This document shows positions 38,452-58,456 of a stretch of DNA of 64,000 nt, one piece after another; the first letter of the stretch is position 1; each line of letters opens with the position of its first letter. This DNA comes from Candidatus Edwardsbacteria bacterium (lineage in GTDB: Bacteria > Edwardsbacteria > AC1 > EtOH8). A model generated the notes under the pieces. It was not told where the DNA came from. It saw only the letters and a program-made list of their open reading frames with translations, and ran no database searches. The DNA lies in assembly GCA_020053305.1 (NCBI GenBank), contig JAGVNJ010000050.1:368-64367 (forward strand). The letters are read 5' to 3'. The position numbers and the translations under genes were made by a program.

Positions 38452-41400
38452 ATGCTCCATAGAAAATCCAAAATATATTCGTTGTCTTTGGCTCTGATCC
38501 TGACGGCGTCGGCGCTGGACATCGCCGGGAAGGCCCGGGCCCAGGAATTCGGACCATTGGAGGATATCACGGCGGATTACAATGCCGAGAGCTTCCGGAA
38601 AAACGTCAGGACCGCCAGCTACAGCATAGACCACCGGCTGGGGCTGATGATAGAGCAGGAGCTGGTTTCCCAGCTGAGCTTTGGGGTCAGGTATTACAGC
38701 CTGCCCGCCTTTTTGGAAAAACTGCGAATCGAGGGTACGGACAGCGCCTGGGCGAGGAACAATCATGCCTTCTTGTCAAAGCCGCCTCAGGAGAGGACCG
38801 GGGAGGGGCTGATCCCCGACATCCAGATACCCATCCCGGGGCTGGGCAGGGCCTTCGGCTCCGGGGCCCAGATAAAGGTCAGCGGCAACCAGAAGATAAC
38901 CGCCGGATACGACCGGACCACCTACAACCAGATCGGCCGGGACCTGGACGCCAATGCCACAACCGATGACGACCGGATAAACATCAAGCAGGCGCAACGA
39001 GTGAATCTGGAGGGGGTGATCGGCGACCGGGTGCATGTGCTGATAGATTACGACAGCGAGGCCGATCCTGACAAACGTAGCAAGGTCCGCCTGCGATATG
39101 AAGGCCAGGAGGACGAGATCCTGCAGAGCCTGGAGGCTGGGGACACCGAATTTTCCCTAAGCGGCTCCTCTCTGGTGGGCGGGCTGACCACGGTCCACAA
39201 GGGCCTGTTCGGGCTTAAGGGGGTGGCCCGGCTGGGGGGCTTCGAGCTGACGGCCATCGCCAGCAAGGACGAGGGCCAGAGCCAGACCAGCTCGTTCGAC
39301 GGCTCGAATGTAACCTCCTCCGTCACCCACCTGGACAATGAATTCATGCAGTATACGGTATACGAGATCATCCCCGGCGGGCTATTGGGCGATACCATCG
39401 AGGCCATAAAGGTCTATATCAAGAATGATCATGTCACCCCCAATGCCGCCGCCCATTACCTGAAGGACCGGAGCTGGCGGGATTTCAGGGGAATTCCCCG
39501 GGATACGATTTACGGCCCGGTTAGAATGGATGTCAAGACCGAGATCACCGATTTCATCCTGGACGATGCCGTAACCGGCCGGATAATTCTGGCCGCCGGC
39601 ATCTACGATCAATCGGTGCTGGGGGTGGCCTATAAGACCAAAAAAGGCGGCTATTATCCCAGCAAATATAATTTCGACAACTCGGATACCCTGATGCTGG
39701 TGAAGCCGGCCAACTGCCAGCCCGCCGATACCATAAACGGCTATTGCTGGAATTATGAAAAAAGAAATTATTATTCCTTGAACGGCCGGGGCATTGATTT
39801 CTCCACCCTGACCATAAAGCTGCAATACCGCAAAGAGAATGAATGGGTGGATAATGATTCGGCCAGCCAGAAGACCTTCCTGGAACTGCTGGGCCTGGAG
39901 AATGCCGGGGCCCTGTATGATAATTATATCAACCAGGAGGAGGGCTATTATTTCTTCCCCCAGGCTCAGCCGTTCCTGTCCCCGGCTCTGCCTGACAGCT
40001 GTCCTGACATCTACCGGGTGAAGAATCTGACCAATTATTCCGCCAAATACCGCTTTATCATCACCTACAAATCCACCGTGGCGATGTATCCCCTGAACGC
40101 CCCGGGGCGCCTGCTGGAGGGCACGGTCAGCGTCACCCTGGACGGATCACCGGTCTCGTCCGGCGAATATACGGTGGATTACGAGATGGGGACGGTCACC
40201 TTCAACGACCGGATCAAAAACATACTGCAGAGCAATGCCGCCCTTAAGATAGATTATCAATACCTGCCAGCGTTCGCTTTGGGGTCCAAGACCCTGGCCG
40301 GCCTGAGGGGCATCTATAAATTCGGGGAGAGCGGCCAGCTGGGCGGCACCTGGCTGTACCGCAGCGAGCAGACCCCGGACGAAAAGCCCCGGCTGGGCGA
40401 GGAACCCCGCCGGATAATCGTGGCCGGGCTGGACGGGAGCTACCAGGCCGCCCCCGATTTTCTCACCAGCTGGACCAATGCCCTGCCGCTGGTGGAGACC
40501 GAGGCCCCGTCCAACTTCAAGCTGACCGGCGAGGTGGCCGGAAATTTCCCCAACCCCAATACCAAGGGCCAGGTGTACATAGACGATATGGACGGCAGCA
40601 AGGTGTCCGACGAGTTCAACCTGAGCCGCTCGGCCTGGGTGCGCTCCAGCGTCCCTCCGGGCAAGACCGATACCCTGCTGGCCAAAACATTTTATTGGTA
40701 CAACCCCACCACCCAGGTCACCATGAAAGAGATCAATCCCGCCATCACCGATGAGACCCAGAAGAACGAAACCATCAGAACATTATTTTTTAAGTATGAA
40801 TCCGGACATCAGGACTCCTTGAACTCCTGGGCCGGGGTCACCCAGCTGATAAGCAAGACCGGGCTTGATTTAAGCCAGAGCAAACTGCTTAACCTCTGGA
40901 TAAGGGGCACTAAAGGGATCGTCCACATAGATATCGGGCGGAATATTGACGAGGATCAGGTATGGTGGACCAAGAAGGGTCTGCACCCGCAAAATAAAAA
41001 AGTGGACTGCGAGCCCTTGAACCTCAACCGGGAGCCGGTCTATACCGATAACACCGACATCGGCCTGGACCGGGTAAGGGGGAATGACAGCACTTATTCA
41101 TCCGCGTCAAGCGAAGACGGGACCGACGATTATGTTGTTGACGTAAATAAACCCGACTACAGTAAAATAAACGGAACCGAGCGCAACGGCTATTACGACA
41201 CCGAGGACCTTAAGATGAACGGCCTGGATTCGATGGATGTGCCCCAGCTGGGCAATAATTATTACACCTTCCGTTTCGATCTCTCCCAAAGCCCGGCCAA
41301 TCAATACGGCTGGCGCCAGCTGTCGGCTTTGCTGGATACCGCCCAGCCGGTGGGGCCCCAGCTGGGCTGGAGCTCCATTCAGTATGCCCGGATCTGGGTG

Positions 41401-44091: not shown

Positions 44092-44099
44092 CGCTTGAA

Positions 44100-44534
44100 T
44101 TGGCGGGAGAGATGTTTGGGTTGACCCCGGACGAAAAAAAAGTCATAATATTTTTTATTGCGGCCCTGGCGCTGGGCAATGCCGTACTGCTCTACAAGAA
44201 AATGCATCCGGACTCTGCCCCGGAGCTTAAATACGGCGGGCCGGAATTGCCCCGGGCCATCGAGCAGCCGGGGTCATTTCCGGCCGGCCCGGAAGCTGCG
44301 GCAAAAAATCAATGGCCGGTCAAAAAGCTCCCGGCCGGAAAGATAGACCTCAATCGGGCCGGCCCCCGGGACCTGCAGAGGCTGCCGGCCATCGGCCCGG
44401 CCATGGCCAAAAAAATAATTGATTTCAGGAAGGAATCAGGCGATTTCAAAAAAGTCGAGGACCTGATGAAGGTCAAGGGCATCGGCCATAAAAAATTCAA
44501 CCGGCTCCGGGAGCATGTCTTTGTAGACCATTAA
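44100..44534 (+). CDS. comEA: ComEA-like helix-hairpin-helix DNA-binding protein (competence DNA receptor)
   Basis: N-terminal TM (VIIFFIAALALGNAVLLY), Pro-rich linker and a C-terminal tandem HhH (IDLNRAGPRDLQRLPAIGPAMAKKIIDFRKESGDFKKVEDLMKVKGIGHKKF). Start is TTG at 44100 or ATG at 44112. Confidence 0.8.
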   Translation: MAGEMFGLTPDEKKVIIFFIAALALGNAVLLYKKMHPDSAPELKYGGPELPRAIEQPGSFPAGPEAAAKNQWPVKKLPAGKIDLNRAGPRDLQRLPAIGPAMAKKIIDFRKESGDFKKVEDLMKVKGIGHKKFNRLREHVFVDH

Positions 44535-44561
44535 GCGACATCATGTTAAAAGACAAATTGC

Positions 44562-44591
44562 TTGACATTTGCAACTTGCATATGCTATAGT
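44562..44591 (+). promoter_or_regulatory. Sigma-70-like promoter (TTGACA-N18-TATAGT) upstream of pilB1
   Basis: Exact -35 hexamer and near-consensus -10. GAGGGA ribosome-binding site before the ATG at 44614. Confidence 0.55.
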
Positions 44592-44613
44592 ATTTCAAAT
44601 TGAGGGAGACGCT

Positions 44614-46308
44614 ATGGGTTTGAAATTAGGCGATATGTTGGTGCAGTCCGGGCTGATAACCAAAGATCAGCTGGACAAGGCCCTGGCCGAGCAGAAAAGC
44701 TCCGGCGCCAAGCTGGGCTCCAGCATTATAAAGCTGGGATTTATGACCGAGGACGCCATCACCCAATTCCTGGGCAAGCAGCTCAACCTTCCCACGGTGA
44801 ATCTTTCCACCGCCGAACTGGATCCCCAGGTTTTAAAACTTATTCCCCCCGAGATAGCCCAGAAATTTCAGGTGATGCCGATCAAAAAAACCGGACGGAT
44901 CCTGTTTCTGGCCATGTCCAACGCCGCCGATGTGTTCATCATGGAGCAAATCTCTTTTCTCACCGGGATGGAGGTCAAGCCGGTGGTATGCGCCGAGACA
45001 TCGCTGGAGAAGGCTTTGGACAAATATTACGGCAGCACCACCCGGGCCGCGGCCCTGAAATCGGTGGAGCAGGAGATCGCCGCCGAGGACATGGAGCTGG
45101 TGGACAAGGATATTGAGGAGGTGGCCAGCCAGGCCGATATCGAATCCACCCCGGTGGTGAAATTAGTAAACAGCATAGTCATCGACGCCATCAAGCGCGG
45201 GGCCTCGGACATCCATATAGAGCCCTACGAAAAAATCCTCCGGGTGCGCTACCGGATAGACGGGGTGCTGCAGGAGACCATGTCGCCTCCCCGCCGGATC
45301 GCGGCGGCCCTGGCCTCGCGCATCAAGGTGCTTTCCAAATTGAACCTCACCGAACGGCGCCTGCCTCAGGACGGAAGGTTCTCCATCAAACTTATCGACC
45401 GGACGGTGGACCTGCGGGTGTCCACCATGCCCATCAAATACGGCGAGAAGATCGTCATCCGGGTGCTGGAGCAGACCAGCCTGGGCGGCGACCTGACCCA
45501 GCTGGGCATCGAGGGCAAGGCCCTGGATGATTTCCTGAAGGCCCTGGCCCGGCCCACCGGCATGATACTGGTCACCGGGCCCACCGGCTCGGGAAAGACC
45601 CGCACCCTTTATTCCGGCATCTCCCGCCTGAACAAGCCCGGGGTCAACATCGTCACCGCCGAGGATCCGGTGGAATACGACATCGTGGGGATCAACCAGG
45701 TCAACGTCCGCCCGGAGATCGGCTATACCTTTGCCAAGGCCCTCAAGGCCTTTTTGCGGCAGGATCCCAACATCGTGCTGGTGGGGGAGATTCGGGACCG
45801 GGAGACCGGCGAGATCGCCATGACCGCGGCCATGACCGGCCACCTGGTGCTGTCCACCCTGCACACCAATGACGCCCCCAGCTCGCTGAACCGGCTGCTG
45901 GATATGGAGATCCCGCCCTTCCTGATAGCCGCCACGGTGAACCTGATCGAAGCCCAGCGCTTAGTCCGGCGCATTTGTTCAAAGTGCAAGGAGCCGGAAA
46001 AAATATCGTCCGAGGAGATGATCAAGATGGGGGTGGATCCAGCCAGTTTCCAAGGGGTGGAGTTTTTCAAGGGCAAGGGATGCCTGGAGTGCAACAATAC
46101 CGGGTACAAGGGCCGGGTGGGCGTGTTTGAGATACTGCCGGTGAGTCCGGAGATAAGAAAACTGATAGTAACCCGGGCCTCCACCGATGAGATCCGGGAG
46201 ATGGCGGTCAAACTGGGGATGAAGACCCTGCGGGAGGATGCCCTGGATAAGGTCAGAAAAGGCATCACCACCATGGAGGCGGCCATCGTGGAGACGGCCT
46301 CGGATTGA
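44614..46308 (+). CDS. pilB: Type IV pilus/T2SS extension ATPase, PilB/GspE family, paralog 1 (N-terminal MshEN-type domain)
   Basis: N-terminal tandem motif KLGDMLVQSGLITKDQLDKALAEQ...KLGSSIIKLGFMTEDAITQFLGKQ. Walker A GPTGSGKTRT. Asp box AEDPVEY. Walker B VLVGEIRD. His box GHLVLSTLHTN. CxxC...CxxC zinc motif. Confidence 0.85.
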   Translation: MGLKLGDMLVQSGLITKDQLDKALAEQKSSGAKLGSSIIKLGFMTEDAITQFLGKQLNLPTVNLSTAELDPQVLKLIPPEIAQKFQVMPIKKTGRILFLAMSNAADVFIMEQISFLTGMEVKPVVCAETSLEKALDKYYGSTTRAAALKSVEQEIAAEDMELVDKDIEEVASQADIESTPVVKLVNSIVIDAIKRGASDIHIEPYEKILRVRYRIDGVLQETMSPPRRIAAALASRIKVLSKLNLTERRLPQDGRFSIKLIDRTVDLRVSTMPIKYGEKIVIRVLEQTSLGGDLTQLGIEGKALDDFLKALARPTGMILVTGPTGSGKTRTLYSGISRLNKPGVNIVTAEDPVEYDIVGINQVNVRPEIGYTFAKALKAFLRQDPNIVLVGEIRDRETGEIAMTAAMTGHLVLSTLHTNDAPSSLNRLLDMEIPPFLIAATVNLIEAQRLVRRICSKCKEPEKISSEEMIKMGVDPASFQGVEFFKGKGCLECNNTGYKGRVGVFEILPVSPEIRKLIVTRASTDEIREMAVKLGMKTLREDALDKVRKGITTMEAAIVETASD

Positions 46309-46343
46309 TAATCACCACATCAAAACTTTAAATAAGACATGAC

Positions 46344-48071
46344 ATGGCTTTAAAAGTCGGCGATATGCTGCTCAAGGCCGGGATGATCAGTCCGGAGCAG
46401 TTGGAACAGGCCCTCAAGGAGCAGCAGAGTTCGGGCCAGAGGCTGGGCTCCCTGCTGGTCAAGATGGGCTTTGTCACCGAGGACGAGGTGGTGGCCTTTC
46501 TCAGCAAGCAGTTCAACGTCCCCTCGGTCAACCTGAACGATTACAAGATCGACGAGCCCATCCTCAAACTGATACCGGCCCATATAGCCCAGAAGTACGG
46601 GCTGATCCCCCTGTCACGCCTGGGCCGGAGCGTGACCGTGGCCATGGTCAACCCCAACGATGTGCTGGCCATGGAGGACATAAAATTCTCCACCGGATTT
46701 GAGGTTCGCCCGGTGATAGCCTCCGAGGCCGCCATCTGGTCGGCCATCGACAAGCAATACGGGTCGGCCGGGATGCTGGAGGATGTGATGAAGGCCATGG
46801 ACCAGGCCGAGGGTGACGTCGAGGCCGGGGACCTGGAGATCCTGGAGGAGCAGCAGGAGGAAGGCGGAGATTCCGCCTCGGAGATGGCCGCGGCCATCGA
46901 GAGCAGCCCGGCGGCCAAATTGGTCAACGGCCTGATCGCCGAGGCGGTCAAGCGCAATGCCACCGACATCCACATCGAGCCCTATGAGAAGGAGATCCGG
47001 GTCCGGATGTCGGTCTACGGCGTGCTGCACGAAGTGATGTCGCCGCCCCTGCGGATGAAGAGCTCCATCGCGGCCCGGATAAAGATCATCGCCAAATTAA
47101 AGATCGAGGAAAAACGCTTTCCCCAGGACGGCCGCCTGCGGATGAACATCCAGGGCAAGCCCATAGACATCCGGGTGTCCATCATCCCCACCGCCTTCGG
47201 GGAGAAGGTGGCCCTGCGCATCCTGGACCGCAGCGCAGTGTCATTCGACCTGCCCACTCTGGGGTTTGAGCCTGAGCCGCTGAAGCACCTGTTGAAGGCG
47301 GTTCAGACGCCCTTCGGAATAGTGCTGGTCACCGGGCCCACCGGCTCCGGCAAGACCACCACCATGTACGCCTGCCTGGAGTCCATCAACCATCCGGACA
47401 CCAATATCATGACCGCCGAGGAGCCGGTGGAGTACAGCCTGATGGGAGTCAATCAGGTGGCGGTGCGCGAGGAAGGCGGCACCACTTTCGGCGCCGCCCT
47501 CAAGGCCTTTTTGCGGCAGGATCCCAACATCATCATGGTGGGAGAGATCCGCGACCGGCAGACCGCCGAGATCGCCATCCGGTCCTCGCTCACCGGCCAT
47601 CTGGTGCTGTCCACCGTCCATACCAACAGCGCCTCGCTGACCATCACCCGGCTGGTGGACATGGGGGTGGAGCCCTTCATGATCGCTTCCTCGTTGCTGC
47701 TGGTGGAGTCCCAGAGGCTGGTCCGCAAGATATGCTCCTACTGCAAGGAGCAGTACAGGCCGGAGGAAAAAATGCTGCGCGAATTCCTGGGGGGCCGGGC
47801 CGACATCACCGGCTTTACCGCCTTCCGGGGCAAGGGCTGCTCGGAATGCCGCAACACCGGATACAAGGGCCGGATCGGCCTGGCCGAGGTGCTGCCCGTC
47901 AGCCCGGGCATCCGGGACCTGATATTGGAGCGAGCCCCCACCTTCAAGATAGAGGCCAAGGCCGTGGAGGAAGGGATGGCCACCCTGCGGATGGACGGGA
48001 TCCACAAGGCCCGCAGCGGGGTGACCACCATCGAAGAGGTCATCAAGGAGACCGTGGCCGCCGCCGACTAA
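46344..48071 (+). CDS. PilB/GspE-family extension ATPase, paralog 2
   Basis: Same domain order and the same Asp/Walker B/His boxes. Walker A GPTGSGKTTT. Acidic linker EGDVEAGDLEILEEQQEEGGDS between the N-domain and the ATPase. Confidence 0.85.
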   Translation: MALKVGDMLLKAGMISPEQLEQALKEQQSSGQRLGSLLVKMGFVTEDEVVAFLSKQFNVPSVNLNDYKIDEPILKLIPAHIAQKYGLIPLSRLGRSVTVAMVNPNDVLAMEDIKFSTGFEVRPVIASEAAIWSAIDKQYGSAGMLEDVMKAMDQAEGDVEAGDLEILEEQQEEGGDSASEMAAAIESSPAAKLVNGLIAEAVKRNATDIHIEPYEKEIRVRMSVYGVLHEVMSPPLRMKSSIAARIKIIAKLKIEEKRFPQDGRLRMNIQGKPIDIRVSIIPTAFGEKVALRILDRSAVSFDLPTLGFEPEPLKHLLKAVQTPFGIVLVTGPTGSGKTTTMYACLESINHPDTNIMTAEEPVEYSLMGVNQVAVREEGGTTFGAALKAFLRQDPNIIMVGEIRDRQTAEIAIRSSLTGHLVLSTVHTNSASLTITRLVDMGVEPFMIASSLLLVESQRLVRKICSYCKEQYRPEEKMLREFLGGRADITGFTAFRGKGCSECRNTGYKGRIGLAEVLPVSPGIRDLILERAPTFKIEAKAVEEGMATLRMDGIHKARSGVTTIEEVIKETVAAAD

Positions 48072-48298
48072 ATATAATACTCGCCTTGGCAATAAACCAA
48101 AGACGAGCAAATCCTAAATCCGAAATCCCAAACAAATGTTAATGACCAAAGCCGTATAATATGGGCATTTTCGGATTTCTGGAATTTTAAAACTTGAGAT
48201 TTGTTTGGTATTTCGGTATTCGAATTTCGGATTTGCCAAAGTGGCAAATACACTCATGAAGAAGGCTCGTTTAAAAATTTAATTAAGCCATAAAACTT

Positions 48299-50065
48299 AT
48301 GCCGCAAAATATTGCCGACATGCTTTTGAAGATGGGACTCCTGACCAAGTCCCAGTACGATCAGGCCTCTCTGGAGCAGAAGAGCAGCAACGAGCCGCTG
48401 GCCGCCACCTTGGTCCGGATGGGGATGGTCACCGAGAACGTGGCCATGCAGTTCATGTCCCGGCAGTTCAATGTCCCGGCCATGGACCTGAGCAACTTCC
48501 AGGTGGAGCCGGCGGTGATAAAGCTGATCCGGCCGGACATCGCCAACAAATTCATGGTGATCCCGTTAAAGCGCCTGGGCCGGGCCCTGACCCTGGCCAT
48601 GATCGATCCCTCGGATTTCTTCGCCCTGGAGGATATCAAATTTCTCACCGGCCTGGACGTCAAGCCGGTGGTGGCCGGCTATTCGGCCGTCAAGAAACTG
48701 CTGGAGCAGCACTATCCGCTGGGCAAGGATGTTCAGGTGATCGCCTCCGGCGGCCAGCTGAGCCAGCTTAAGGACGAGGCCATCGAGAGCCTGCCCGATG
48801 ATGACTCGGCCCTGGAGGGGCTGGGGGGCGACATCGAGATGGAGATGGTGGACGATGTCGAGGAGGACATGGACCTGGCCGACGCCCAGCAGGCCGGCTC
48901 CTCCACCCCGGTGGTCAAAATGGTCAACTACATCATGACCGAGGCGGTGCGCCGCGGAGCCTCGGACATCCATGTGGAGCCCTATGAGAAGATCTTCCGG
49001 ATCCGATTGAGGCAGGACGGCGTGCTGCAGACCCTGATGGAGCCGCCCATGCGGATGAAGGCCCCGCTGGTCTCCCGCATAAAGATCATGTCCAAACTGG
49101 ACGTCACCGAGCGCCGCAAGCCGCAGGACGGCCGGATCGCCATCAAGGTGCTCAACAAGAAGATCGACCTCCGGGTGTCCACCCTGCCGGTGCTGTTCGG
49201 GGAGAAGGTGGTGATGCGTATTTTGGACGCCGGGTCGCTGACCCTGGATCTGGCCAATTTCGGCTTCACCGAACTGGCCCTGAAGAATTTCATGAAGGCC
49301 ATCCACGCCCCCTACGGCATAGTCCTGATCACCGGCCCCACCGGGTCGGGAAAGACCACCACCCTGTATTCCGCCCTCTCCCAGCTGAACACGCCGGACC
49401 GGCATATCCTGACCGTGGAGGATCCCATCGAATACAATCTGAAGGGGGTCAACCAGGTCCAGGCCGAGTTGGGGATAGGTTTCACCTTTGACGTGGCCCT
49501 CAGGGCCATGCTGCGGCAGGCTCCCAACATCATCATGCTGGGCGAGATCCGGGACGGCCCCACCGCCGCCATCGCGGTCAAGGCCGCCCTGACCGGGCAT
49601 CTGGTGTTGTCCACCCTGCATACCAACGACGCTCCGTCGTCGGTCAGCCGTCTGATCGACATGGGGATCGAGCCGTTCCTGGTGGCCTCCTCGACCGTGC
49701 TGATCCAGGCCCAGCGCCTGGTCCGCCGGATATGCAAGGCCTGCAAGGAGCCGTTCCATGTCAATCCCCAGTCCCTGATCGACATGGGCTTCAAAGCCGA
49801 GGAGGTGGCCGGGGTCACCTATTACAAGGGCAAGGGCTGCCCCATCTGCAGCAATACCGGATACAAGGGCCGGGTGGGTCTCTACGAGGTGATGCCCATC
49901 ACTCCCGAGATCCGGGACCTGATACTGAACCGGGAGGCGGTGACCTCCATCAGGGCCAAGGCGGTGGAACAGGGGATGCTGACCCTGCGGATGGACGCCT
50001 GGGGCAAGGTCAAGCAGGGCATGACCACGGTGGAGGAGATGTTCCGCGAAACCGCCGAGGGATAG
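48299..50065 (+). CDS. PilB/GspE-family extension ATPase, paralog 3
   Basis: Same architecture. Walker A GPTGSGKTTT. Acidic linker DDDSALEGLGGDIEMEMVDDVEEDMD. Tetracysteine motif CKACKEP...CPICSNTG. Confidence 0.85.
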   Translation: MPQNIADMLLKMGLLTKSQYDQASLEQKSSNEPLAATLVRMGMVTENVAMQFMSRQFNVPAMDLSNFQVEPAVIKLIRPDIANKFMVIPLKRLGRALTLAMIDPSDFFALEDIKFLTGLDVKPVVAGYSAVKKLLEQHYPLGKDVQVIASGGQLSQLKDEAIESLPDDDSALEGLGGDIEMEMVDDVEEDMDLADAQQAGSSTPVVKMVNYIMTEAVRRGASDIHVEPYEKIFRIRLRQDGVLQTLMEPPMRMKAPLVSRIKIMSKLDVTERRKPQDGRIAIKVLNKKIDLRVSTLPVLFGEKVVMRILDAGSLTLDLANFGFTELALKNFMKAIHAPYGIVLITGPTGSGKTTTLYSALSQLNTPDRHILTVEDPIEYNLKGVNQVQAELGIGFTFDVALRAMLRQAPNIIMLGEIRDGPTAAIAVKAALTGHLVLSTLHTNDAPSSVSRLIDMGIEPFLVASSTVLIQAQRLVRRICKACKEPFHVNPQSLIDMGFKAEEVAGVTYYKGKGCPICSNTGYKGRVGLYEVMPITPEIRDLILNREAVTSIRAKAVEQGMLTLRMDAWGKVKQGMTTVEEMFRETAEG

Positions 50066-50165
50066 AACGAATATCAAAAATAAAATATAAAAAACTCAAA
50101 GGGTTAATCCTGGGTGTTTTTCTGTCCCGGTGGTAAAATGAATATAAAATAAGGATGGGCAAAGC

Positions 50166-51236
50166 ATGTTGACTCTTACCCAACTCTTGGAGGAGATGAT
50201 CCAGAAGAAGGGGACCGACCTGCACCTGACGGTGGGGATCCCGCCGGTGATCCGGGTGGACGGCGAGCTGATGCAGACCTCCCACGAGACGCTGACCCCC
50301 CAGATGACCGAACAGCTGGCCTACAGCATACTGAAGGACACCCAGAAGAAGCGCTTTGAGACCGAACGGGAGCTGGACCTGTCCATCGGCATTCAGGGGC
50401 TCTCCCGCTTCCGGGGCAACATCTTTCTGCAGCGGGGCTGCGTGGCCATGGCCATGCGGGTGATCCCCTGGGAGATCCGCTCCTTCCAGGCCCTGGGCCT
50501 ACCGCCCATCGCCGCTGCCCTGGCCGACAAACCCAAGGGACTGGTGCTGGTCACCGGGCCCACCGGCTCGGGCAAATCCACCACCCTGGCCACCATGATC
50601 GACAAGATCAACAGCGAGCGGCGGGGTCACATCATCACCGTCGAGGACCCCATCGAGTACATCCATCATCACAAGAAATGCATCATCAACCAGCGGGAGC
50701 TGGAGTCGGACACCAAGAGCTTCAAGAACGCCCTGAAATACGCCCTGCGGCAGGACCCCGACGTGGTGCTGGTGGGCGAGATGCGGGACCTGGAGACCGT
50801 GGAGTCGGCCCTGCACATCTCCGAGACCGGCCACCTGACCCTGGCCACCCTGCACACCAACTCGGCGGCCGAATCCATCCACCGCATCATCGACGTCTTT
50901 CCGCCCTATCAGCAGCCCCAGGTGCGGGCCCAGCTGGCCTTCGTGCTGGAGGGGGTGATGACCCAGCAGCTGATACCCATGACCCGGGGCGGCCGGGCCC
51001 TGTGCCTGGAGATCATGGTCTGCACCCCGGCCATCAAGGCCCTGATCCGGGACGACAAGGTCCACCAGATATATTCCTCGATGCAGGCCGGGCAGAAGTA
51101 CGGCATGCAGACCATGAACCAGTCGCTGGCCAATCTTTTCTTCGAGAAGAAGGTCTCGCTGGACACCGCCTTCGACCACACCTCCAACGTGGAGGAGCTG
51201 GACCAGATGATCAAGAAACGCCAGGCCGTGGTGTGA
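50166..51236 (+). CDS. pilT: Twitching-motility retraction ATPase
   Basis: PilT length (356 aa). Walker A GPTGSGKSTT. AIRNLIRE-like motif (AIKALIRDDK). No MshEN N-domain. Confidence 0.9.
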   Translation: MLTLTQLLEEMIQKKGTDLHLTVGIPPVIRVDGELMQTSHETLTPQMTEQLAYSILKDTQKKRFETERELDLSIGIQGLSRFRGNIFLQRGCVAMAMRVIPWEIRSFQALGLPPIAAALADKPKGLVLVTGPTGSGKSTTLATMIDKINSERRGHIITVEDPIEYIHHHKKCIINQRELESDTKSFKNALKYALRQDPDVVLVGEMRDLETVESALHISETGHLTLATLHTNSAAESIHRIIDVFPPYQQPQVRAQLAFVLEGVMTQQLIPMTRGGRALCLEIMVCTPAIKALIRDDKVHQIYSSMQAGQKYGMQTMNQSLANLFFEKKVSLDTAFDHTSNVEELDQMIKKRQAVV

Positions 51237-51534
51237 TAATATTGGGAACTTTGCACACAGATGAACACAGATTAGTACAGATTTTCTCGGATTTAATTTT
51301 ATGATTTTGGGTTAACAAGTAACGTCCGTGCAAATCCGGTCCAATCAGTGAAATCCGTGTGCCATAAGCCCCCCGTCCGATTCCCGATCTCAATTCCACT
51401 CAGGGCAGGCTTATCGTCTTCCCCGCCACCGTCCGCCTCCGGCGGAGCGGTGATTGAATTCCAATGACTACAATTAATCGCTCGGATTAATAATTCCTTA
51501 GAAAAGAATAAATATTTTACAAGGAGCAATAAAG

Positions 51535-52746
51535 ATGCCACTATATCTCTGGAAAGGGCGCGATTCCAAAGCCGGTTTGGTCTCCGGAGAGCTGACCGCC
51601 GAAAGCGAAGGCGCGGTCATCGAGGCGTTGCGCAAGAAAAATATAATAGTGTCCTCGGTGCGGGTCAAGCCCAAGGAGATCACCCTCAGCTTTATGCAAC
51701 CCAAGGTGAGCAACAAGGACCTGTCGATCTTCACCCGGCAGTTCGCCACCATGATCAACGCCGGCCTGCCGCTGGTTTCCTGCCTGGAGATCCAGGCCCA
51801 GCAGCAGGAGAACCCCACCTTCAAGAAGGTGCTGGAGACCATCAAGTCCGATGTGGAGGGCGGCTCCACTTTGGCCGAGGCCCTGAAGCGGCAGAAACAG
51901 GTGTTCAGCGAACTGTATATCAACATGGCGGCGGCCGGCGAGGCCGGCGGTATCTTAGACAACATTTTGATGCGCCTGGCGGTATATCTGGAAAAGGCCG
52001 AGGCCCTGGTATCCAAGGTCAAAAGGGCCATGATCATGCCGGTGATTTTGACCACCGTAGCGGTGGGAGCGGCGGCGGTGTTGCTGATATTCGTGATCCC
52101 CATCTTCGAGAAGATGTTCGCCGGTATGGGGGCCAAGCTGCCGGGCCCCACCCTGTTCGTGGTGGGGCTCTCCAAGTTCCTGCAGAAATTCATCATCCCC
52201 ATCATCATCGTGGCCGCGGCCGCCATATTTGCCATTCAGCGGTGGTACAAGACCGACAAGGGAGAGCTGTACCTGGACTCCCTGATGCTTAAAATACCCA
52301 TCCTGGGCAATCTCCAGCAGAAATCGGCCGTGGCCCGTTTCGCCCGGACCCTGGGCACTCTTCTGGCCAGCGGCGTGGCCATCCTGGACGCCCTGGAGAT
52401 CACCGCCAAGACCGCCGGCAACCGGGTGGTGCAGGACGCCATCATGTCGGCCCGCAAGTCCATCGGAGGCGGCGAGACCATCTCGGCCCCCTTAAAGACC
52501 ATGAAGATATTTCCGCCCATGGTGGTGCAGATGATCTCGGTGGGCGAGGCCACCGGCGGTCTGGACGAGATGCTCAATAAGATCGCCGACTTCTACGACG
52601 AGGAGGTGGACGGAGCGGTGGAGGGACTGACCGCGGCCATGGAGCCGATCATCATGGTGGTGCTGGGGCTGGGCATCGGCGGCATGGTGGTAGCCATGTA
52701 TCTGCCGATATTCACCATGACCTCGGCCCTGATGGGCGGTCACTAA
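51535..52746 (+). CDS. pilC: Type IV pilus inner-membrane platform protein (PilC/GspF family)
   Basis: Duplicated GspF domain. Three TM segments. Typical N-terminus MPLYLWKGRDSKAG. 403 aa. Confidence 0.9.
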   Translation: MPLYLWKGRDSKAGLVSGELTAESEGAVIEALRKKNIIVSSVRVKPKEITLSFMQPKVSNKDLSIFTRQFATMINAGLPLVSCLEIQAQQQENPTFKKVLETIKSDVEGGSTLAEALKRQKQVFSELYINMAAAGEAGGILDNILMRLAVYLEKAEALVSKVKRAMIMPVILTTVAVGAAAVLLIFVIPIFEKMFAGMGAKLPGPTLFVVGLSKFLQKFIIPIIIVAAAAIFAIQRWYKTDKGELYLDSLMLKIPILGNLQQKSAVARFARTLGTLLASGVAILDALEITAKTAGNRVVQDAIMSARKSIGGGETISAPLKTMKIFPPMVVQMISVGEATGGLDEMLNKIADFYDEEVDGAVEGLTAAMEPIIMVVLGLGIGGMVVAMYLPIFTMTSALMGGH

Positions 52747-52766
52747 TCCCTACCGATTGAAACATA

Positions 52767-54941
52767 ATGAGATCAACTTTCCTGAAGGATAACCCGGTGA
52801 TGTTTTGGGGCCGGGTGGTAATCGTGGCATTGATGACGGGAAGCGCTGCGGTGTTAAAAACACTGGGGGCGCTTCCCCTGTCTTTTCCGGGCATCATCCT
52901 CCTGTCTATCATCTTCCTGCTGCTGACGGCCTTTGCTAAGTATCTTAATCATCGGCGGCCGGGCTGGCGGTGGGATTATGCCCAAATGGTGCTGGACATC
53001 GGCTGGATCGCCGCCTTCATCCATATGACCGGCGGGGCGGAGAACCCCTTTACCCTGCTGTTCTTCATAGCCATTATTGCCGCCGCCAATGTCCGCTTTG
53101 CTAAGGGAGCAATTTTCACCGCCACCTTATCCAGCCTGACCCTGGCCGCTTTGATATATTTGGATTACCGCAGTTTAAGGACCGGACTGTTGCTGGGCCG
53201 GGACCAGGATTTCGTGACTGCTTTCACTACCGAGTTTGTTTTCCGGGGATACCTCTATGCCATCTGCTTCTATCTGGTGGCGGCCTTCTCCGGCTACCTG
53301 GCCGAAAGGCTCAGGCTGAAGGGGAGGCAGCTGGAGGACACCGCCCGGGCCCTGGAGGAGTTCAAGCTGTCCACCGGCGATATCCTGGAGAAGATGGGCA
53401 GCGGCCTGCTGACCATCAATGAAAAAGGGCAGATCGTATACTGCAACCTTTCCGGCCTGCAGATACTGGGCCTGGAAAAAAGCGAGATCATCGGCCGCAA
53501 TGTCTCCCAGGTAGCCGTCGAGGGCCGGGAATCCCTGGGGAGCATTCTGGCCCCGGATAATGCCCCAAGGGAAGGCCGCTCCCAGCGGATGGAGATAAAA
53601 ATATCGCGGGGCCGGGAGGAGGGCATTCCGGTGGGGGTCAGCACCACCTCGGTCTATGGCAGCCAGGGGAAACTGGAGGGCATCATCGCCATCTTCCAGG
53701 ACCTGAGCGCGGTCAAAACGCTGGAGAACCGGATGATCGAGATGGAACAGCTGGAGACCTCCAAGGAGCTGACCAAATCCCTGCTGAAGCTTCTGCATCC
53801 CTACCTTTCCGAGATAAATGCCACCATCTCCGAACTGATGAGGGAGAATGAGGTGGACCCGGTCATCATCGCCAAGATCTCCCGGGTTAAGGAGAAGACC
53901 GAGTATATCCGCAAGACCATCGATGACTTTGCCAGGTTCGCCCATATCGAAATCCCGGGAGCCGATATGGTCCAGCAGGCCGGCCGGGAATATGACAGCC
54001 GGATAATTGGCCGGTCGCCGAATTTCGTCGAGATCATGAACATGGTCCAGCAGGTGGCCCCCACCGACAGCACGGTGCTGGTCTGCGGGGAGTCCGGCAC
54101 CGGCAAGGAACTGCTGGCCCGGGAGCTGCACCGCCTGAGCGGTCGGGGCAAAGGACCATTCGTCAGCATCAACTGCGCCGCCCTGCCCGAGACCCTGCTG
54201 GAATCGGAGCTGTTCGGCCATGTCAAGGGATCGTTCACCGGGGCGATGCGCGACAAGGACGGCCTGTTCCGGGTGGCCTCCGGCGGCACCTTTTTCTTAG
54301 ACGAGGTGTCCGAGACCTCTCCGGCCATTCAGGTTAAGCTGCTGCGGGTGCTGCAGGAACGGGAGATCGTGCCGGTGGGAGGCACCCGTCCCATCAAGGT
54401 GGATGTCAGGGTGATCTCGGCCACCAACAGCGATCTGGCAAAGGCGGTGGAGATGAATAAATTCAGGATGGATCTGTTCTACCGCCTTAACGTCATCCAG
54501 ATCACCATCCCTCCGCTGAGGGACCGCAAAGACGACGTGCTGCTGCTGGCCGATGAGATCATCGCCAATTATTGCCGGAAGCAGAATCTCCCGGTTAAGC
54601 TGATGTCTTCCGGGGCCAGGGATTTTTTGATGCAATACAATTGGCCCGGCAACGTCAGGGAATTGGAGAATGTCTTGGAGCGGGCCATCATCCTGGAGAC
54701 CGGACCGGTGATAGAAAAAAACAGCCTGCCGGACGAGGTATTGAAGTTCGGGTCCGACATTAAAAAGGCGCCGTTACCGGAAACGGCCAACGGGGGGAAT
54801 TTAAAGGACAAGGAAAAGCAGACCATTCTTAAGGTATTGACCGAATGCCATAACAATAAGGCCTTGGCGGCCAAAAAGCTGGGTATTCACTACGCCACTT
54901 TGTACCGGAAATTGAAAAGCTATAATATTACGGATGAATAA
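52767..54941 (+). CDS. Membrane-anchored sigma-54-dependent transcriptional activator (polytopic TM sensor - PAS - AAA+ - Fis HTH; no receiver domain)
   Basis: Four to six N-terminal TM helices containing a PilS/AlgZ-like HMTGGAENPF segment. PAS-like region. Sigma-54 interaction domain (VLVCGESGTGKELLAREL, GSFTGA variant of GAFTGA, RVISATN). C-terminal HTH (ALAAKKLGIHYATLYRKL). Confidence 0.8.
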   Translation: MRSTFLKDNPVMFWGRVVIVALMTGSAAVLKTLGALPLSFPGIILLSIIFLLLTAFAKYLNHRRPGWRWDYAQMVLDIGWIAAFIHMTGGAENPFTLLFFIAIIAAANVRFAKGAIFTATLSSLTLAALIYLDYRSLRTGLLLGRDQDFVTAFTTEFVFRGYLYAICFYLVAAFSGYLAERLRLKGRQLEDTARALEEFKLSTGDILEKMGSGLLTINEKGQIVYCNLSGLQILGLEKSEIIGRNVSQVAVEGRESLGSILAPDNAPREGRSQRMEIKISRGREEGIPVGVSTTSVYGSQGKLEGIIAIFQDLSAVKTLENRMIEMEQLETSKELTKSLLKLLHPYLSEINATISELMRENEVDPVIIAKISRVKEKTEYIRKTIDDFARFAHIEIPGADMVQQAGREYDSRIIGRSPNFVEIMNMVQQVAPTDSTVLVCGESGTGKELLARELHRLSGRGKGPFVSINCAALPETLLESELFGHVKGSFTGAMRDKDGLFRVASGGTFFLDEVSETSPAIQVKLLRVLQEREIVPVGGTRPIKVDVRVISATNSDLAKAVEMNKFRMDLFYRLNVIQITIPPLRDRKDDVLLLADEIIANYCRKQNLPVKLMSSGARDFLMQYNWPGNVRELENVLERAIILETGPVIEKNSLPDEVLKFGSDIKKAPLPETANGGNLKDKEKQTILKVLTECHNNKALAAKKLGIHYATLYRKLKSYNITDE

Positions 54942-54959
54942 GAAACAGGGTAGTCGGTA

Positions 54960-55150
54960 TGGCAATAATAGTCATCCTGAGATTCTTCGGCTTGCCGGGC
55001 AGGATGCAGGACTCAGAATGACGAAATGGTTTGCTGTCACGTCATCCTGAAAGCGACAACAGTTTTCACAATGTCATTCCCTCGAAAGAGGGTATCTATG
55101 TTTTTGCTGGATTCCCGCCTATGCGGGAATGACACAGAATTGAAGGATCT
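54960..55150. repeat. Hairpin-rich intergenic repeat cluster (GTCATCCTGA x2; TGTCATTCCC...GGGAATGACA 10-bp inverted repeat)
   Basis: Direct and inverted copies of a GTCATYCC / GGAATGAC core. Small perfect hairpins (CCCTC-gaaa-GAGGG, TCCCGC-ctat-GCGGGA). Related copy at 60927-61035. Confidence 0.6.
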
Positions 55151-55201
55151 GCGCCTATAGGAGGTGTTCAGGAGGCTATCTTGGGCTATCCTCCTGACTT
55201 T

Positions 55202-55217
55202 AGGCACGATAATTGCT
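55202..55217 (+). promoter_or_regulatory. Sigma-54 (-24/-12) promoter upstream of the HAMP-pilin gene
   Basis: AGGCACGATAATTGCT matches TGGCACG-N4-TTGCW with correct GG/GC spacing. About 36 nt upstream of the ATG at 55253. Confidence 0.65.
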
Positions 55218-55252
55218 TATATTATCTGCATAACAGACATTAAGGAATTGAT

Positions 55253-56338
55253 ATGGCTCAAAATCGAAGACGAAAAATACTGGCCCACAAGGATATGCAG
55301 ATCAGGATCGTCATTCAGATCTTGGCAATGGTGGCCGGCGGAATGCTGCTGGTGGGCGGGGCGATATATCTGATCATCTGGCAGGGCATCACCAGCCCGG
55401 CCTTTGCTTCGGGTCAAACATCAATAATCAGCATCTTTGACCAGGTGCATAAATTGCTTTTTATAGTTATTCCGGTTCTTATCTTGATAATGGGCTGGAT
55501 CGCAATAATTATCTCACATCGTATAGCCGGACCTTTGGTAAACCTGAACAAGGGCATGAGAGACCTGGAGAGCGGCCAGTGGCCGGAGCGGCCCATGAAA
55601 TTCCGCAAAGGGGATGAGGGCCATCACCTGGCAGAGCAGTTCAACAGCATGGTGGAGAAAGTAAAATTGCAGATGGAACACGAAAGAAACAGGATGGACT
55701 CCATGCTGACTGAAGTGGAATCCGTTTCAGCCAAGTTAAAGCAGGAGAAAAAGACCGAACAGGAAATCATAAAGGAATTGGATTCATTGCAGGAAAAAAT
55801 CAAAAAATCCGCTCAGCAGGGCTTCACCCTGATAGAATTGATGATCGTGGTGGTGATAATAGGCATACTGGCCGCCATAGCCGTGCCCAATTACATGAGT
55901 ATGCGCAGCCGGGCTATGGAAGCCTCTACCAAATCAAATATGCATACTCTGCAATTAGTGATTGAAGATTTTGCGGTGAGGGTTGACGGCTTTTACCCCG
56001 ATAACTTGGATACAAAATTATCGGATATTAACGCATCATTATCTGCCGTTTCGATTGCCGAAGGCGTGCGTATCCCGCCATTCCCGGCCGCTGCCTTGAT
56101 ATGTCCGCACTTGGGTTATGTCAATCCGTTTAATCCTGCGGCCAACGCTTTGGACGATCTCCCGGGCGGCCCGCCAGCACCGGCGGCGGGCCCCAGCGGA
56201 GATGTTTTTTATACCAGTTATGATGTTGACGGCAACCTGAACGGAGGCACCAATCCAGCCGCTAGGGGGTATAGAATATGTGCATATGGTAAAACTGACC
56301 CCGTGATCCTGATTTTAACTGGAGGCACGGGAAATTAG
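55253..56338 (+). CDS. 2TM-HAMP-coiled-coil protein fused in-frame to a type IV prepilin (or two unresolved genes with the pilin starting at an internal TTG)
   Basis: Residues 1-90: two TM helices with a short loop. Residues 90-140: HAMP-like (HRIAGPLVNLNKGMRDLESGQW...DEGHHLAEQFNSMVEKV). Then about 50 aa of coiled coil. Then the canonical prepilin motif KKSAQQG|FTLIELMIVVVIIGILAAIAVPNY and a pilin globular domain paralogous to 56518..57018. No stop codon separates the two parts. Confidence 0.55.
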   Translation: MAQNRRRKILAHKDMQIRIVIQILAMVAGGMLLVGGAIYLIIWQGITSPAFASGQTSIISIFDQVHKLLFIVIPVLILIMGWIAIIISHRIAGPLVNLNKGMRDLESGQWPERPMKFRKGDEGHHLAEQFNSMVEKVKLQMEHERNRMDSMLTEVESVSAKLKQEKKTEQEIIKELDSLQEKIKKSAQQGFTLIELMIVVVIIGILAAIAVPNYMSMRSRAMEASTKSNMHTLQLVIEDFAVRVDGFYPDNLDTKLSDINASLSAVSIAEGVRIPPFPAAALICPHLGYVNPFNPAANALDDLPGGPPAPAAGPSGDVFYTSYDVDGNLNGGTNPAARGYRICAYGKTDPVILILTGGTGN

Positions 56339-56437
56339 TCGTCTATTGCAATAATATCGCATAATGCAAAGTAAATAAATTTGAACTATCATTGCGTAAC
56401 CGTTTATATACAATAAACTTGTCAACGCATTTATTTT

Positions 56438-56453
56438 TGGCATGATTTATGCT
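56438..56453 (+). promoter_or_regulatory. Sigma-54 (-24/-12) promoter upstream of pilA
   Basis: TGGCATGATTTATGCT fits TGGCAC-N5-TTGCW in spacing. About 65 nt upstream of the pilA ATG. Confidence 0.65.
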
Positions 56454-56517
56454 GCCATATTTAAGTCATAAGACTACAAAAAAAATCAATCCAACTAAAT
56501 TTTAAAAGGAGACCAAA

Positions 56518-57018
56518 ATGAACAACAAAGGCTTTACCCTGATCGAGTTGATGATCGTGGTGGTCATCATCGGTATCCTGGCGGCCATCGCCATTCCCAA
56601 CTTTATGTCCATGCAGGACCGGGCCAAGGAAGGTTCCGTCAAGGCTAATATGCATACCCTGCAGTTGGCGTCCGAGGATTTCTCTACCCAAGCTGATGGG
56701 ATTTATGCAGGAAACCTCGCTAGCACAATTGCTGATGCTAACGCCCTGTCTGCCAGCGTGTCTACTATTCCATTGTTATTGCCGGGCAATTTTAAGAACC
56801 CGTTTTTAGGTACAACGGGCGTAGGGGGTGGTTTGGCACTTAACGACGGCGGCGCGGAGCCGGCAGTATTTGCGGTTGCTGATAGAGGCATAGTATATTA
56901 TAACGGCTTGGATGTGGCTGGCGCATATGTTGGGGCAGTGGGTCCGGCAGTATCCTACGCAATCTATGGCGCAGGCAAAACTGACATTATTATCCTTAGG
57001 CTTACTTCGGGCCAGTAG
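56518..57018 (+). CDS. pilA: Type IV major pilin (PilA-like)
   Basis: MNNKG|FTLIELMIVVVIIGILAAIAIPNF prepilin leader and N-terminal helix. 166 aa. Confidence 0.85.
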   Translation: MNNKGFTLIELMIVVVIIGILAAIAIPNFMSMQDRAKEGSVKANMHTLQLASEDFSTQADGIYAGNLASTIADANALSASVSTIPLLLPGNFKNPFLGTTGVGGGLALNDGGAEPAVFAVADRGIVYYNGLDVAGAYVGAVGPAVSYAIYGAGKTDIIILRLTSGQ

Positions 57019-57035
57019 CGCTAATTGTTAAAAAA

Positions 57036-57067
57036 GGTAGGCTGTGCAATACGGCCTGCCTTTTTTT
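57036..57067 (+). terminator. Rho-independent terminator after pilA
   Basis: A-run, GGTAGGC-(11 nt loop)-GCCTGCC stem, then TTTTTTT. Confidence 0.7.
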
Positions 57068-57128: not shown

Positions 57129-57530
57129 ATGAATTGCCCCTACATAAGACATTTGAAAAAAAATGTAACAATAATTTTGCTGTTCCTCTTCTGCGGTTGT
57201 GCAAATACAGATAAGACCCCGGAGGCGGCGGTAAGATATTTCTGGGCGGCCATGGCCAAGGGCGACAAAGCGGAGGTGCTCAAAACCCAGATATATTATA
57301 AAACAGGCATGACCTCCGAATTCATAAATATCCCGGAAAACATCGAGTGGCTTTATTTAGACAGCATGACCACTGTTTACAAAAGCGATTCCCGGGCAGA
57401 TGTTTATTACCAGGTGGTATTCAGGAAGAATAACGGCACAAAAACTGTCCGTTATAAAACCGGGACCCTGGCCATTAAAAAGAACAATAATTGGATGATA
57501 GCAAGGGTGATAGGAGCTAAAAAAGAATGA
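57129..57530 (+). CDS. Small lipoprotein of unknown function
   Basis: Lipobox LFLFCGC after a positively charged N-terminus. ATGA overlap with the downstream ABC ATPase. Confidence 0.45.
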   Translation: MNCPYIRHLKKNVTIILLFLFCGCANTDKTPEAAVRYFWAAMAKGDKAEVLKTQIYYKTGMTSEFINIPENIEWLYLDSMTTVYKSDSRADVYYQVVFRKNNGTKTVRYKTGTLAIKKNNNWMIARVIGAKKE

Positions 57531-58456
57531 CGGCCGTCATACAGATAAAGGGGTTATATAAAACCTACCAAAAACATTTCTGGATGCCCCGGCAAACCGT
57601 GCTTAAGGGCTTGAACCTGGAGGTGGAGGCGGGACAGATATTCGGTTTCCTCGGCCCCAACGGGGCCGGCAAGACCACCACCATCAAAACATTGATGGGC
57701 ATCATCCGGCCCAGCGCCGGCCGGGCCTTGCTTTTCGGCAAAGACCCCTGGGATATCGAGCCCAAACAGAGGATCGGCTTTCTGCCGGAATCCCCATATT
57801 TCTATGATTATCTGACCGGCCTCGAGTTCCTGGTATTTTGCGGCCGACTGTTCAATATAAGCAGTGTCGTTTTAAAGAGCAGGATCCAGGAACTGCTGGC
57901 CTTAGTCAACTTGAGTTATGCCGCCGATCTGCAGATGCGCAAATACTCCAAGGGCATGCTGCAGCGGATAGGGCTGGCCCAAGCCCTGATCAACGACCCC
58001 CAGCTGGTGGTGCTGGACGAACCGCTGACCGGCTTGGACCCGCTGGGCCGCAAGGAATTCAAGGACATCATTCTGAATTTAAAGGCCCGGGGCAAGACGG
58101 TTTTTTTCAGCTCCCATATCCTGCCGGACGCCGAGATGGTCTGCGATGCCGTGGCCATAATCAACAAAGGGAAACTTCTGCAGGTGGGAAATCTGGCCGA
58201 TCTCCTTAACGCCCGGATCAAAGCGATTGAATTAAACTGCCGGAATATTCCCGAGGAAACGGCCGGCAAAATGAAAAGCCGGTCGCTTTCGTCAAATACC
58301 ATCAACGGGCAATGGCAGTTCAATTTAAAGGCCGAGGCCGACATTTCCGGGGCGATAGATCTGGTGAAGGCCGCTGGCGGGGATATTATAAGTGTCATCC
58401 CCCAAAAGGAAAGCCTGGAGGAATATTTTTCCCGGGAGGTGGCCGGCGATGCGTAA
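57527..58456 (+). CDS. ABC transporter ATP-binding protein (ABC-2 exporter type)
   Basis: Walker A GPNGAGKTTT, signature YSKGMLQR and Walker B VVLDEPLTGLD. Confidence 0.85.
   Translation: MTAVIQIKGLYKTYQKHFWMPRQTVLKGLNLEVEAGQIFGFLGPNGAGKTTTIKTLMGIIRPSAGRALLFGKDPWDIEPKQRIGFLPESPYFYDYLTGLEFLVFCGRLFNISSVVLKSRIQELLALVNLSYAADLQMRKYSKGMLQRIGLAQALINDPQLVVLDEPLTGLDPLGRKEFKDIILNLKARGKTVFFSSHILPDAEMVCDAVAIINKGKLLQVGNLADLLNARIKAIELNCRNIPEETAGKMKSRSLSSNTINGQWQFNLKAEADISGAIDLVKAAGGDIISVIPQKESLEEYFSREVAGDA

Follow-up and report, generated by a model that had tools for sequence, protein, structure and literature searches.

In model organisms with type IVa pili (T4aP), pilMNOPQ, which include the gene of the secretin PilQ, and the prepilin peptidase gene pilD lie apart from pilB, pilT, pilC, pilS, pilR and pilA. 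The sensor PilS perceives the pilin through its six transmembrane (TM) helices, and PilR acts together with sigma-54 at pilA (PMC6058289). In Acinetobacter baylyi, two extension motors, PilB and TfpB, serve one pilus machine (PMC11656802). The secretion system of type IX (T9SS) is thought to be widespread among the phyla of the FCB superphylum, that is, Fibrobacterota-Chlorobiota-Bacteroidota and allies (PMC11285876). Genes related to these systems stand side by side in the locus considered here, a run of ten consecutive open reading frames (ORFs) in the genome of a Candidatus Edwardsbacteria bacterium (contig JAGVNJ010000050.1). All ten lie on the plus strand at 38,452-57,018 of the stretch of 64 kb that was analysed (the window, whose numbering is used throughout), and with the terminator that follows them the run measures ~18.6 kb. 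Loci fetched from relatives for comparison, 88 in total, are designated L001, L002 and so on.

The run probably consists of two adjacent modules, one formed by sprA and a comEA-like gene and the other by T4aP motor and control genes, rather than of the parts of one machine. In the first module, sprA and the comEA-like gene would be transcribed together, divergently from lptFG; the second would provide the inner-membrane engine and the control circuit of a type IVa pilus, expressed from a sigma-70-type promoter of its own. The pil part, a cluster of the canonical type pilB-pilT-pilC-pilS/R-pilA whose pilin genes have sigma-54 promoters, shows in addition three features seen so far only in Candidatus Edwardsbacteria-type genomes: a triple PilB, a fusion of PilS with the activator, and a HAMP-prepilin.

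Gene content, transcription units and the identity of the giant protein

A preliminary description of the window had listed a giant outer-membrane protein, ComEA, three PilB ATPases, PilT, PilC, a sigma-54 activator and two pilins, and with Pfam and NCBIfam models every one of these genes was found where it had been placed, co-directional and intact (Table 1). The same description treated the run as one unit closed by a single strong terminator. The terminator itself is convincing and the genes are indeed co-directional, but a single operon is not predicted. A TTGACA-N17/18-TATAGT element precedes pilB1 in the window and in L001, L002, L009, L003, L010 and L005, with flanks and spacers that have diverged among them. 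In the window it lies just 5' of the probable start of pilB1; the ORF opens at 44569, and the true start is very probably the ATG at 44614, which gives a protein of 564 aa, matching its orthologues. On the 3' side of comEA, a clear hairpin followed by a T-run is present in L005, and similar hairpins occur in L003 and L010. Because of the conserved promoter before pilB1 and the terminator-like hairpins after comEA in these three relatives, sprA-comEA and the pil genes are predicted to form separate transcription units, and the supposition that they share one transcript is not borne out. Within the run, terminator-like sites are no commoner than in shuffled sequence, and an Rfam scan of 36-58 kb found no RNA family. 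The long imperfect inverted repeat listed in Table 1 sits in a window-specific insertion of ~190 nt in the gap between pilB2 and pilB3, a gap of 38 nt in L001 and 35 nt in L002. Two gaps in the window, 48071-48299 and 51236-51535, are ~190-240 nt longer than those of L001 and L002 (35-57 nt) and may represent small inserted repeat elements.

The 1,879-aa protein that opens the run scores 358.3 bits against TIGR04189, the SprA family model (cut-off 200). It matches the Flavobacterium johnsoniae SprA of PDB entry 6h3i at E 2.5e-29 in a single-sequence search and, when a profile of 13 homologues is used, at E 5e-195 over positions 78-1667, which is most of its length. Its homologues carry PF14349 (SprA_N); among the FCB lineages that encode them are TA06, Edwardsbacteria, Zixibacteria, WOR-3 and Gemmatimonadota. 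Judged by eye, the N-terminus (MLHRKSKIYSLSLALILTASALDIAGKARAQ...) and the C-terminus (...VEIKF) bear the marks of outer-membrane targeting. By these sequence comparisons the giant protein is clearly a bona fide orthologue of the T9SS translocon SprA/Sov and no novel or orphan barrel; most simply, it would be the T9SS translocon of this organism.

Cargo for such a translocon is found in a close relative. L009, whose SprA is 78% identical, harbours at 18052-22341, between pilB1 and pilB2, a gene whose 1,429-aa product ends in a C-terminal sorting domain of the T9SS type (CTD; PF18962 at 29.3 bits, cut-off 27; CHU_C). The insertion of this gene inside the pilB array of L009 indicates both that the array tolerates interruption and that the lineage has T9SS cargo. 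When the L009 CTD served as a phmmer query, another 29 ORFs with CTD-like matches came up in other FCB loci retrieved around sprA; the window holds no CTD cargo gene. The translocon and the CTD cargo together extend the evidence for T9SS to an uncultured candidate phylum. Literature searches returned nothing on pili or T9SS in TA06/Edwardsbacteria, and nothing on three tandem bacterial PilBs.

Table 1. Features of the run and of its immediate surroundings.
Feature	Position	Strand	Characteristics
lptF/lptG pair	36069..38367	-	PF03739 E 2.7e-81 and 8.5e-85; divergent from sprA
sprA/sov orthologue, 1,879 aa	38452..44091	+	signal peptide, C-terminal Phe
comEA-like, 144 aa	44112..44534 (TTG 44100 also possible start)	+	N-terminal TM anchor, C-terminal helix-hairpin-helix (HhH)
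Sigma-70-type promoter of pilB1, TTGACA-18-TGnTATAGT	44562..44591	+	11/12 positions match
pilB1, extension ATPase	44614..46308	+	TIGR02538 694.7 bits; NF053729 69.7; both MshEN motifs intact
pilB2, extension ATPase	46344..48071	+	TIGR02538 666.8 bits; NF053729 73.9; MshEN motifs intact
Long imperfect inverted repeat	48107..48236		-43.1 kcal/mol, z -4.1; TTTCGGATTT three times
pilB3, extension ATPase	48299..50065	+	TIGR02538 676.5 bits; NF053729 37.5; MshEN cyclic di-GMP (c-di-GMP) motifs degenerate
pilT, retraction ATPase	50166..51236	+	TIGR01420 484.5 bits (cut-off 319); Walker A GPTGSGKS, AIKALIRD motif
pilC, platform protein, sole one in array	51535..52746	+	PF00482 twice, 204 bits; NF052606 493 bits
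PilS-PilR fusion, 724 aa	52767..54941	+	6TM_PilS, PAS, helical linker, sigma-54 AAA+ (GSFTGA loop), HTH_8
Inverted repeat TGTCATTCCC...GGGAATGACA	55072..55134		70-130 nt upstream of sigma-54 promoter
Sigma-54 promoter-like site AGGCACGATAATTGCT	55202..55217	+	35 nt 5' of ATG 55253
2TM-HAMP-coiled-coil + type IV prepilin fusion, 361 aa	55253..56338	+	N_methyl 186-210, HAMP 87-137
Sigma-54 promoter-like site TGGCATGATTTATGCT	56438..56453	+	64 nt 5' of pilin 2
Short type IVa-like prepilin, 166 aa (MNNKG|FTLIELM)	56518..57018	+	PF07963, TIGR02532
Intrinsic terminator, hairpin + U7	57030..57067	+	-29.3 kcal/mol, z -5.27
ABC-2 transporter (ATPase + permease)	57527..59216	+	PF00005, PF12679; 3' of pilins

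Motors, activator and prepilins of the pil genes

Each of the three PilBs is full-length and combines an MshEN and a T2SSE domain with a Walker A motif (GPTGSGKT), an Asp box, a Walker B motif, a His box and four Cys; all catalytic motifs are thus present in each copy, as the preliminary description had held. PilB2 lies just under the TIGR02538 cut-off of 675.65 bits and PilB3 just under the NF053729 cut-off of 38; all three proteins score as PilB and fall under the cut-off for GspE. An MshEN domain had been ascribed to all three, and the fold (PF05157) is indeed found in each, but the motifs for c-di-GMP are degenerate in PilB3. The motif tested consists of two tandem 24-residue units, xLGxx(L/V/I)2xxG(L/V/I)2x4Lx3Lx2Q, which begin KLG/KLG in PilB1 and KVG/RLG in PilB2; in PilB3, NIA/PLA replaces xLG in all orthologues, so that LG is lost from both motifs in every one of them while the fold is kept. 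Identity between the paralogues is 48-52%, as against 70-95% across genomes within each orthologue group, which points to an old triplication maintained under purifying selection. The second PilB of Aegiribacteria is degenerate much like PilB3, and in a neighbour-joining tree the two Aegiribacteria PilBs were not assignable as orthologues of particular Edwardsbacteria paralogues.

Beside the three PilBs, the window and all relatives with the full array (L001, L002, L003, L005 and L010) have a single PilC and a single PilT. PilC falls under the cut-off of the PilC equivalog models (493 against 700). The proposal that differently gated motors share one PilC and one PilT is plausible, given that the MshEN motifs differ between the copies and that only one PilC and one PilT are present in the full-array relatives. 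The three PilBs may dock on the single PilC in turn, or as mixed hexamers; PilB1 and PilB2 would respond to c-di-GMP through MshEN, and PilB3 would be blind to it. A different explanation assigns each of the three ATPases to a type IV filament machine of its own, such as a pilus for motility, a pseudopilus for competence and an exporter resembling a type II secretion system; the PilC-like platforms and pilins of these machines would be encoded elsewhere, and the tandem order would be a mere record of duplication. Such an arrangement would follow the rule in most multi-ATPase bacteria, in which each ATPase serves its own machine and non-cognate ATPases fail to complement (PMC11656802), and archaeal PilB paralogues pair with PilC paralogues (PMC6491452); the genes for ComEA and for two different pilins, moreover, lie close by. 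It is nevertheless unlikely here, since every full-array relative has one PilC and one PilT, all three proteins score as PilB and fall under the GspE cut-off, and the tandem is kept under one conserved promoter across genomes with SprA only 42-44% identical.

The sigma-54 activator of the preliminary description is present as far as the sigma-54 AAA+ domain is concerned, but the gene actually encodes a PilS-PilR fusion. Pfam recognizes 6TM_PilS, PAS, Sigma54_activat, AAA_lid and HTH_8, and no HisKA, HATPase or REC domain. When its N-terminal 410 aa were used as a query, this architecture was recovered only from Edwardsbacteria-type proteins, and the next relatives were true PilS kinases; at this position Aegiribacteria encode PilS and PilR as two proteins, and true PilS/PilR pairs are also seen among the distant hits. 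With a PilS sensor joined to an activator and neither kinase nor receiver in between, the protein would work in a PilSR-like manner and yet as a one-component, membrane-tethered activator; by its domain content it does not belong to the two-component systems. P0150, which looks like an activator-pilin fusion of 598 aa, is considered an artefact of a gene call that reads through, and no real protein.

The fused regulator would read the pilin pool of the inner membrane and switch on the sigma-54 promoters of the two pilin genes. Matches to the consensus used (GG-N10-GC) number 22 in the whole window, where 31 are expected; the class is not above chance, and the case for the two pilin sites therefore rests on their position. 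The orthologous short pilin of L008 also has a perfect sigma-54 site (TGGCACTTCGATTGCA) upstream. The inverted repeat that precedes the first of the two promoters is a candidate activator-binding site if the TGTC-type PilR sites of Pseudomonas aeruginosa are taken as a model. Sigma-54 wiring had been part of the preliminary description; such control of pilin genes is canonical and nothing special (PMC6058289).

Both genes described as pilins do encode prepilins, each with a class III signal peptide (G|FTLIE) recognized by PF07963 and TIGR02532, but in the first, of 361 aa, a 2TM-HAMP module is fused to a prepilin whose cleavage motif G|FTLIELM lies at residues 190/191. The conserved HAMP module (...SHRIAGPLV...PMKFRKGDE.HHLAEQFN.M...) is continued in the same frame by KKSAQQG|FTLIELM... 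Full-length homologues have 332-362 aa and are 49-78% identical, and the frame is kept in 14 aligned homologues though the length of the linker varies. The topology of the fusion would make the G|F site face the cytoplasm, the side on which the prepilin peptidase needs it, and the peptidase would then release a normal pilin. No description of a HAMP-prepilin fusion was found in the literature searched. On its own, as a protein of ~190 aa, the 2TM-HAMP module is widespread (54 cluster representatives, E<1e-10). A second, independent fusion of the module, to the prepilin-like segment GFTITELLVSLAIMMIL, is seen in P0318 (401 aa), which belongs to an unrelated cluster. P0318 hints at a general functional link between this small HAMP family and type IV pilins.

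It might be argued that the 361-aa protein is not made whole, and that the pilin is translated from an internal start (a TTG near 55787, with the product M-QEKIKKSAQQG|F) behind a separate HAMP protein that has lost its stop codon. The wide occurrence of the N-terminal module on its own would fit this view, as would a possible AAGGA Shine-Dalgarno sequence and TTG 5' of the pilin motif. The view is doubtful, however, in the light of the 14 aligned homologues, which stay in frame and without a stop codon down to ~50% identity even with a 24-residue difference in the linker, of the independent module-prepilin fusion in another cluster, and of a topology that is self-consistent, with the N-terminus inside, two TM helices, a cytoplasmic HAMP domain and a pilin helix running from N-in to C-out.

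Synteny around sprA and the question of the secretin

The comEA-like gene starts 8-20 nt past the stop codon of sprA. Its product matches PF12836 (HHH_3) at 74 bits (cut-off 27) and stays under the cut-offs of the curated ComEA models TIGR01259 (67.8 against 152) and TIGR00426 (51.4 against 53.1); it is probably a membrane-anchored periplasmic HhH DNA-binding protein. Neither comEC nor any other competence gene is present in the window.

A genome scan with a SprA alignment added 80 FCB loci to the comparison. The divergent lptFG pair lies upstream of sprA in 38 of 65 FCB loci from many phyla, often with metK-ahcY nearby, and lptFG-sprA(-comEA), with lptFG divergent, is a block of synteny that is old in the FCB superphylum. 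No description of this association between the permeases of lipopolysaccharide export and the T9SS translocon was found in the literature searched; the synteny is now documented deep across the superphylum. Down to a SprA identity of 42-44%, the block is collinear over the polysaccharide genes, metK, ahcY, lptFG, sprA, comEA, the three pilB, pilT, pilC and the activator gene; in these close relatives the collinearity is general synteny, unrelated housekeeping genes included. Beyond them, lptFG and sprA stay together and the neighbours downstream of sprA vary: comEA is found 3' of sprA in 13/72 FCB loci, pilB in 12/72 and a pilM-like gene in 5/72. In Aegiribacteria and Fermentibacteria the order is sprA-pilB-pilB-pilT-pilC-pilS-pilR, without comEA. 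In Zixibacteria and in metagenome-assembled genomes (MAGs) labelled as Gemmatimonadota or Latescibacterota, the string sprA-comEA-pilM-like leads on to coaD and/or obg, and rsmD is also part of it in Zixibacteria and one unclassified MAG (two loci). The pilM-like genes (L015, L022, L037, L061 and L078) match PF11104 in L015 and L022, and the diverged copies tested in L037, L061 and L078 have no Pfam match; each is a lone PilM-like actin-fold gene with no PilN, PilO, PilP or PilQ gene beside it. With rsmD, coaD and obg as neighbours, this is a housekeeping string and no pilus operon. The adjacency of ComEA and the giant protein had been read as the sign of one system, whereas the comparison shows sprA next to lptFG in many FCB phyla that have no pil genes there.

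Pfam scans of the larger plus-strand ORFs and a phmmer search of all stop-to-stop ORFs of at least 80 aa in the window with the M13 pIV secretin agree with the preliminary description in finding no secretin, no PilMNOP and no PilD in the 64 kb. Given the separate location of pilMNOPQ and pilD in model T4aP organisms, their absence from the window is unremarkable, and secretin, PilMNOP and PilD are probably encoded elsewhere in the genome. That the system as a whole is 'secretin-less' is accordingly unproven, the absence being one from the window and from the surveyed surroundings of sprA.

Several points weigh against the two-module reading. No secretin was found when M13 pIV, a distant phage secretin, was used as a phmmer query against 6,897 ORFs of the window and the 88 loci (~25 kb around sprA); at the limited sensitivity of this query, the result speaks against a secretin gene nearby, and the placing of the secretin elsewhere follows precedent. 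In the window itself there is no hairpin between comEA and pilB1, so that read-through from sprA into the pil genes is possible, and the promoters and terminators invoked are predicted ones. The sharing of one PilC by three PilBs is deduced from gene content. AlphaFold2 modelled the HAMP-prepilin with low confidence (pLDDT 53, pTM 0.27), and the model is usable for its helix layout only. A comEA, pilB or pilM-like gene lies just 3' of sprA in 19/72 FCB loci from several phylum-level lineages; this recurrence of a sprA-comEA/T4P neighbourhood is real, and the two-module reading gives no explanation for it.

The recurrence could be taken as a sign of functional coupling, in which the SprA barrel serves as the outer-membrane passage with or without a secretin, but such coupling is very improbable. 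The form proposed at first, in which an SprA-like barrel replaces or supplements PilQ in a machine made of ComEA, the PilBs, PilT, PilC and the pilins, can draw on the closeness of comEA to sprA with the pil genes behind, on the recurrence in Zixibacteria, Gemmatimonadota/Latescibacterota-labelled and Aegiribacteria/Fermentibacteria MAGs and on the negative M13 pIV search, yet it has hardly any probability left beside an orthologue of the T9SS translocon over nearly the whole length, T9SS cargo in the lineage, a conserved promoter and relatives' terminators that part sprA-comEA from the pil genes, housekeeping neighbours behind sprA-comEA-pilM-like in other phyla, a majority of loci that keep sprA by lptFG with no T4P-related gene downstream, and the placing of pilQ outside the pilB/T/C/S/R/A cluster that is the rule in model organisms. 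The ordinary identity of SprA, the separate transcription predicted for the pil genes and the FCB synteny together leave the replacement of the secretin by an SprA-type protein unsupported, and two adjacent modules remain the preferred reading.

Neighbouring genes and comparison with known systems

The remainder of the window encodes polysaccharide synthesis (1-33.4 kb), metK, ahcY, lptFG, an ABC-2 transporter, a PD-(D/E)XK protein and aminotransferases. Within the polysaccharide cluster, the segment 6000-12000 is a low-GC island (30-39% against ~55% in its surroundings) with Wzz, Wzy, flippase and glycosyltransferase genes, and it looks like a serotype-type cassette exchanged horizontally; the window has two flippases (8647-9906 and 17123-18418) and three Wzy_C genes. 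On the 3' side of the pilins, a small ORF, the ABC-2 ATPase, its permease and a 291-aa protein occupy 57129-60088. The order of the transporter genes is kept in L008 (11053-14298), a relative whose SprA is 44% identical. The arrangement recalls the ABC exporter adjoining pilA in Geobacter, and a transporter 3' of the pilins matches the order in G. sulfurreducens. A lone gene of the PD-(D/E)XK nuclease family (PF13366, E 1.6e-38) lies at 60202-60603 between the transporter and two aminotransferase genes, and the counterpart position in L008 holds a DUF559 fragment.

Compared with SprA/Sov of F. johnsoniae (6h3i; PMC10994853), the protein of the window has homology over the full length, a signal peptide and the C-terminal Phe in common with it; it differs from Bacteroidota SprA in being ~500 residues shorter, in its candidate-phylum host and in having comEA directly downstream. 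With ComEA, the periplasmic DNA receptor of natural transformation, the comEA-like product shares the membrane anchor and the HHH_3 domain, and differs from it in scoring under both NCBIfam cut-offs and in being tied, as a gene, to sprA in several FCB phyla.

The pil genes have the order pilB-pilT-pilC-pilS-pilR-pilA of T4aP clusters of the Geobacter and Myxococcus type. Clusters under PilS-PilR control, such as that of P. aeruginosa (PMC6058289), share with them the sigma-54 pilin promoters and the PilS-type 6TM sensing domain. The differences from canonical T4aP clusters are that there are three PilBs instead of one, that PilS and PilR are fused, and that one of the pilins bears a 2TM-HAMP N-terminal module. 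The PilS-activator fusion would be a minimal, phosphorelay-free form of pilin autoregulation by a membrane-tethered sigma-54 activator, and the HAMP-prepilin fusion suggests that the supply or processing of pilin can be signal-gated.

Among c-di-GMP-gated ATPases of the MshE type (Vibrio cholerae MshE, Myxococcus xanthus PilB; PMC11656802), PilB1 and PilB2 find their counterparts in carrying both motifs, whereas PilB3 would depart from them, to judge by its sequence, in having lost LG from both motifs while keeping the PF05157 fold. If the three-motor reading is true, the array would offer a natural system for how several extension ATPases share one pilus platform, with two c-di-GMP-responsive motors and one non-responsive, the question of platform sharing having been raised by PilB and TfpB of A. 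baylyi. The A. baylyi pair (PMC11656802) has in common with the present array more than one intact extension ATPase beside a single platform, and differential regulation of the motors has been proposed for it. The array differs from that pair in having three predicted motors, which are tandem paralogues ~50% identical, and none of the three is an orthologue of TfpB (417-457 bits against a model cut-off of 850).

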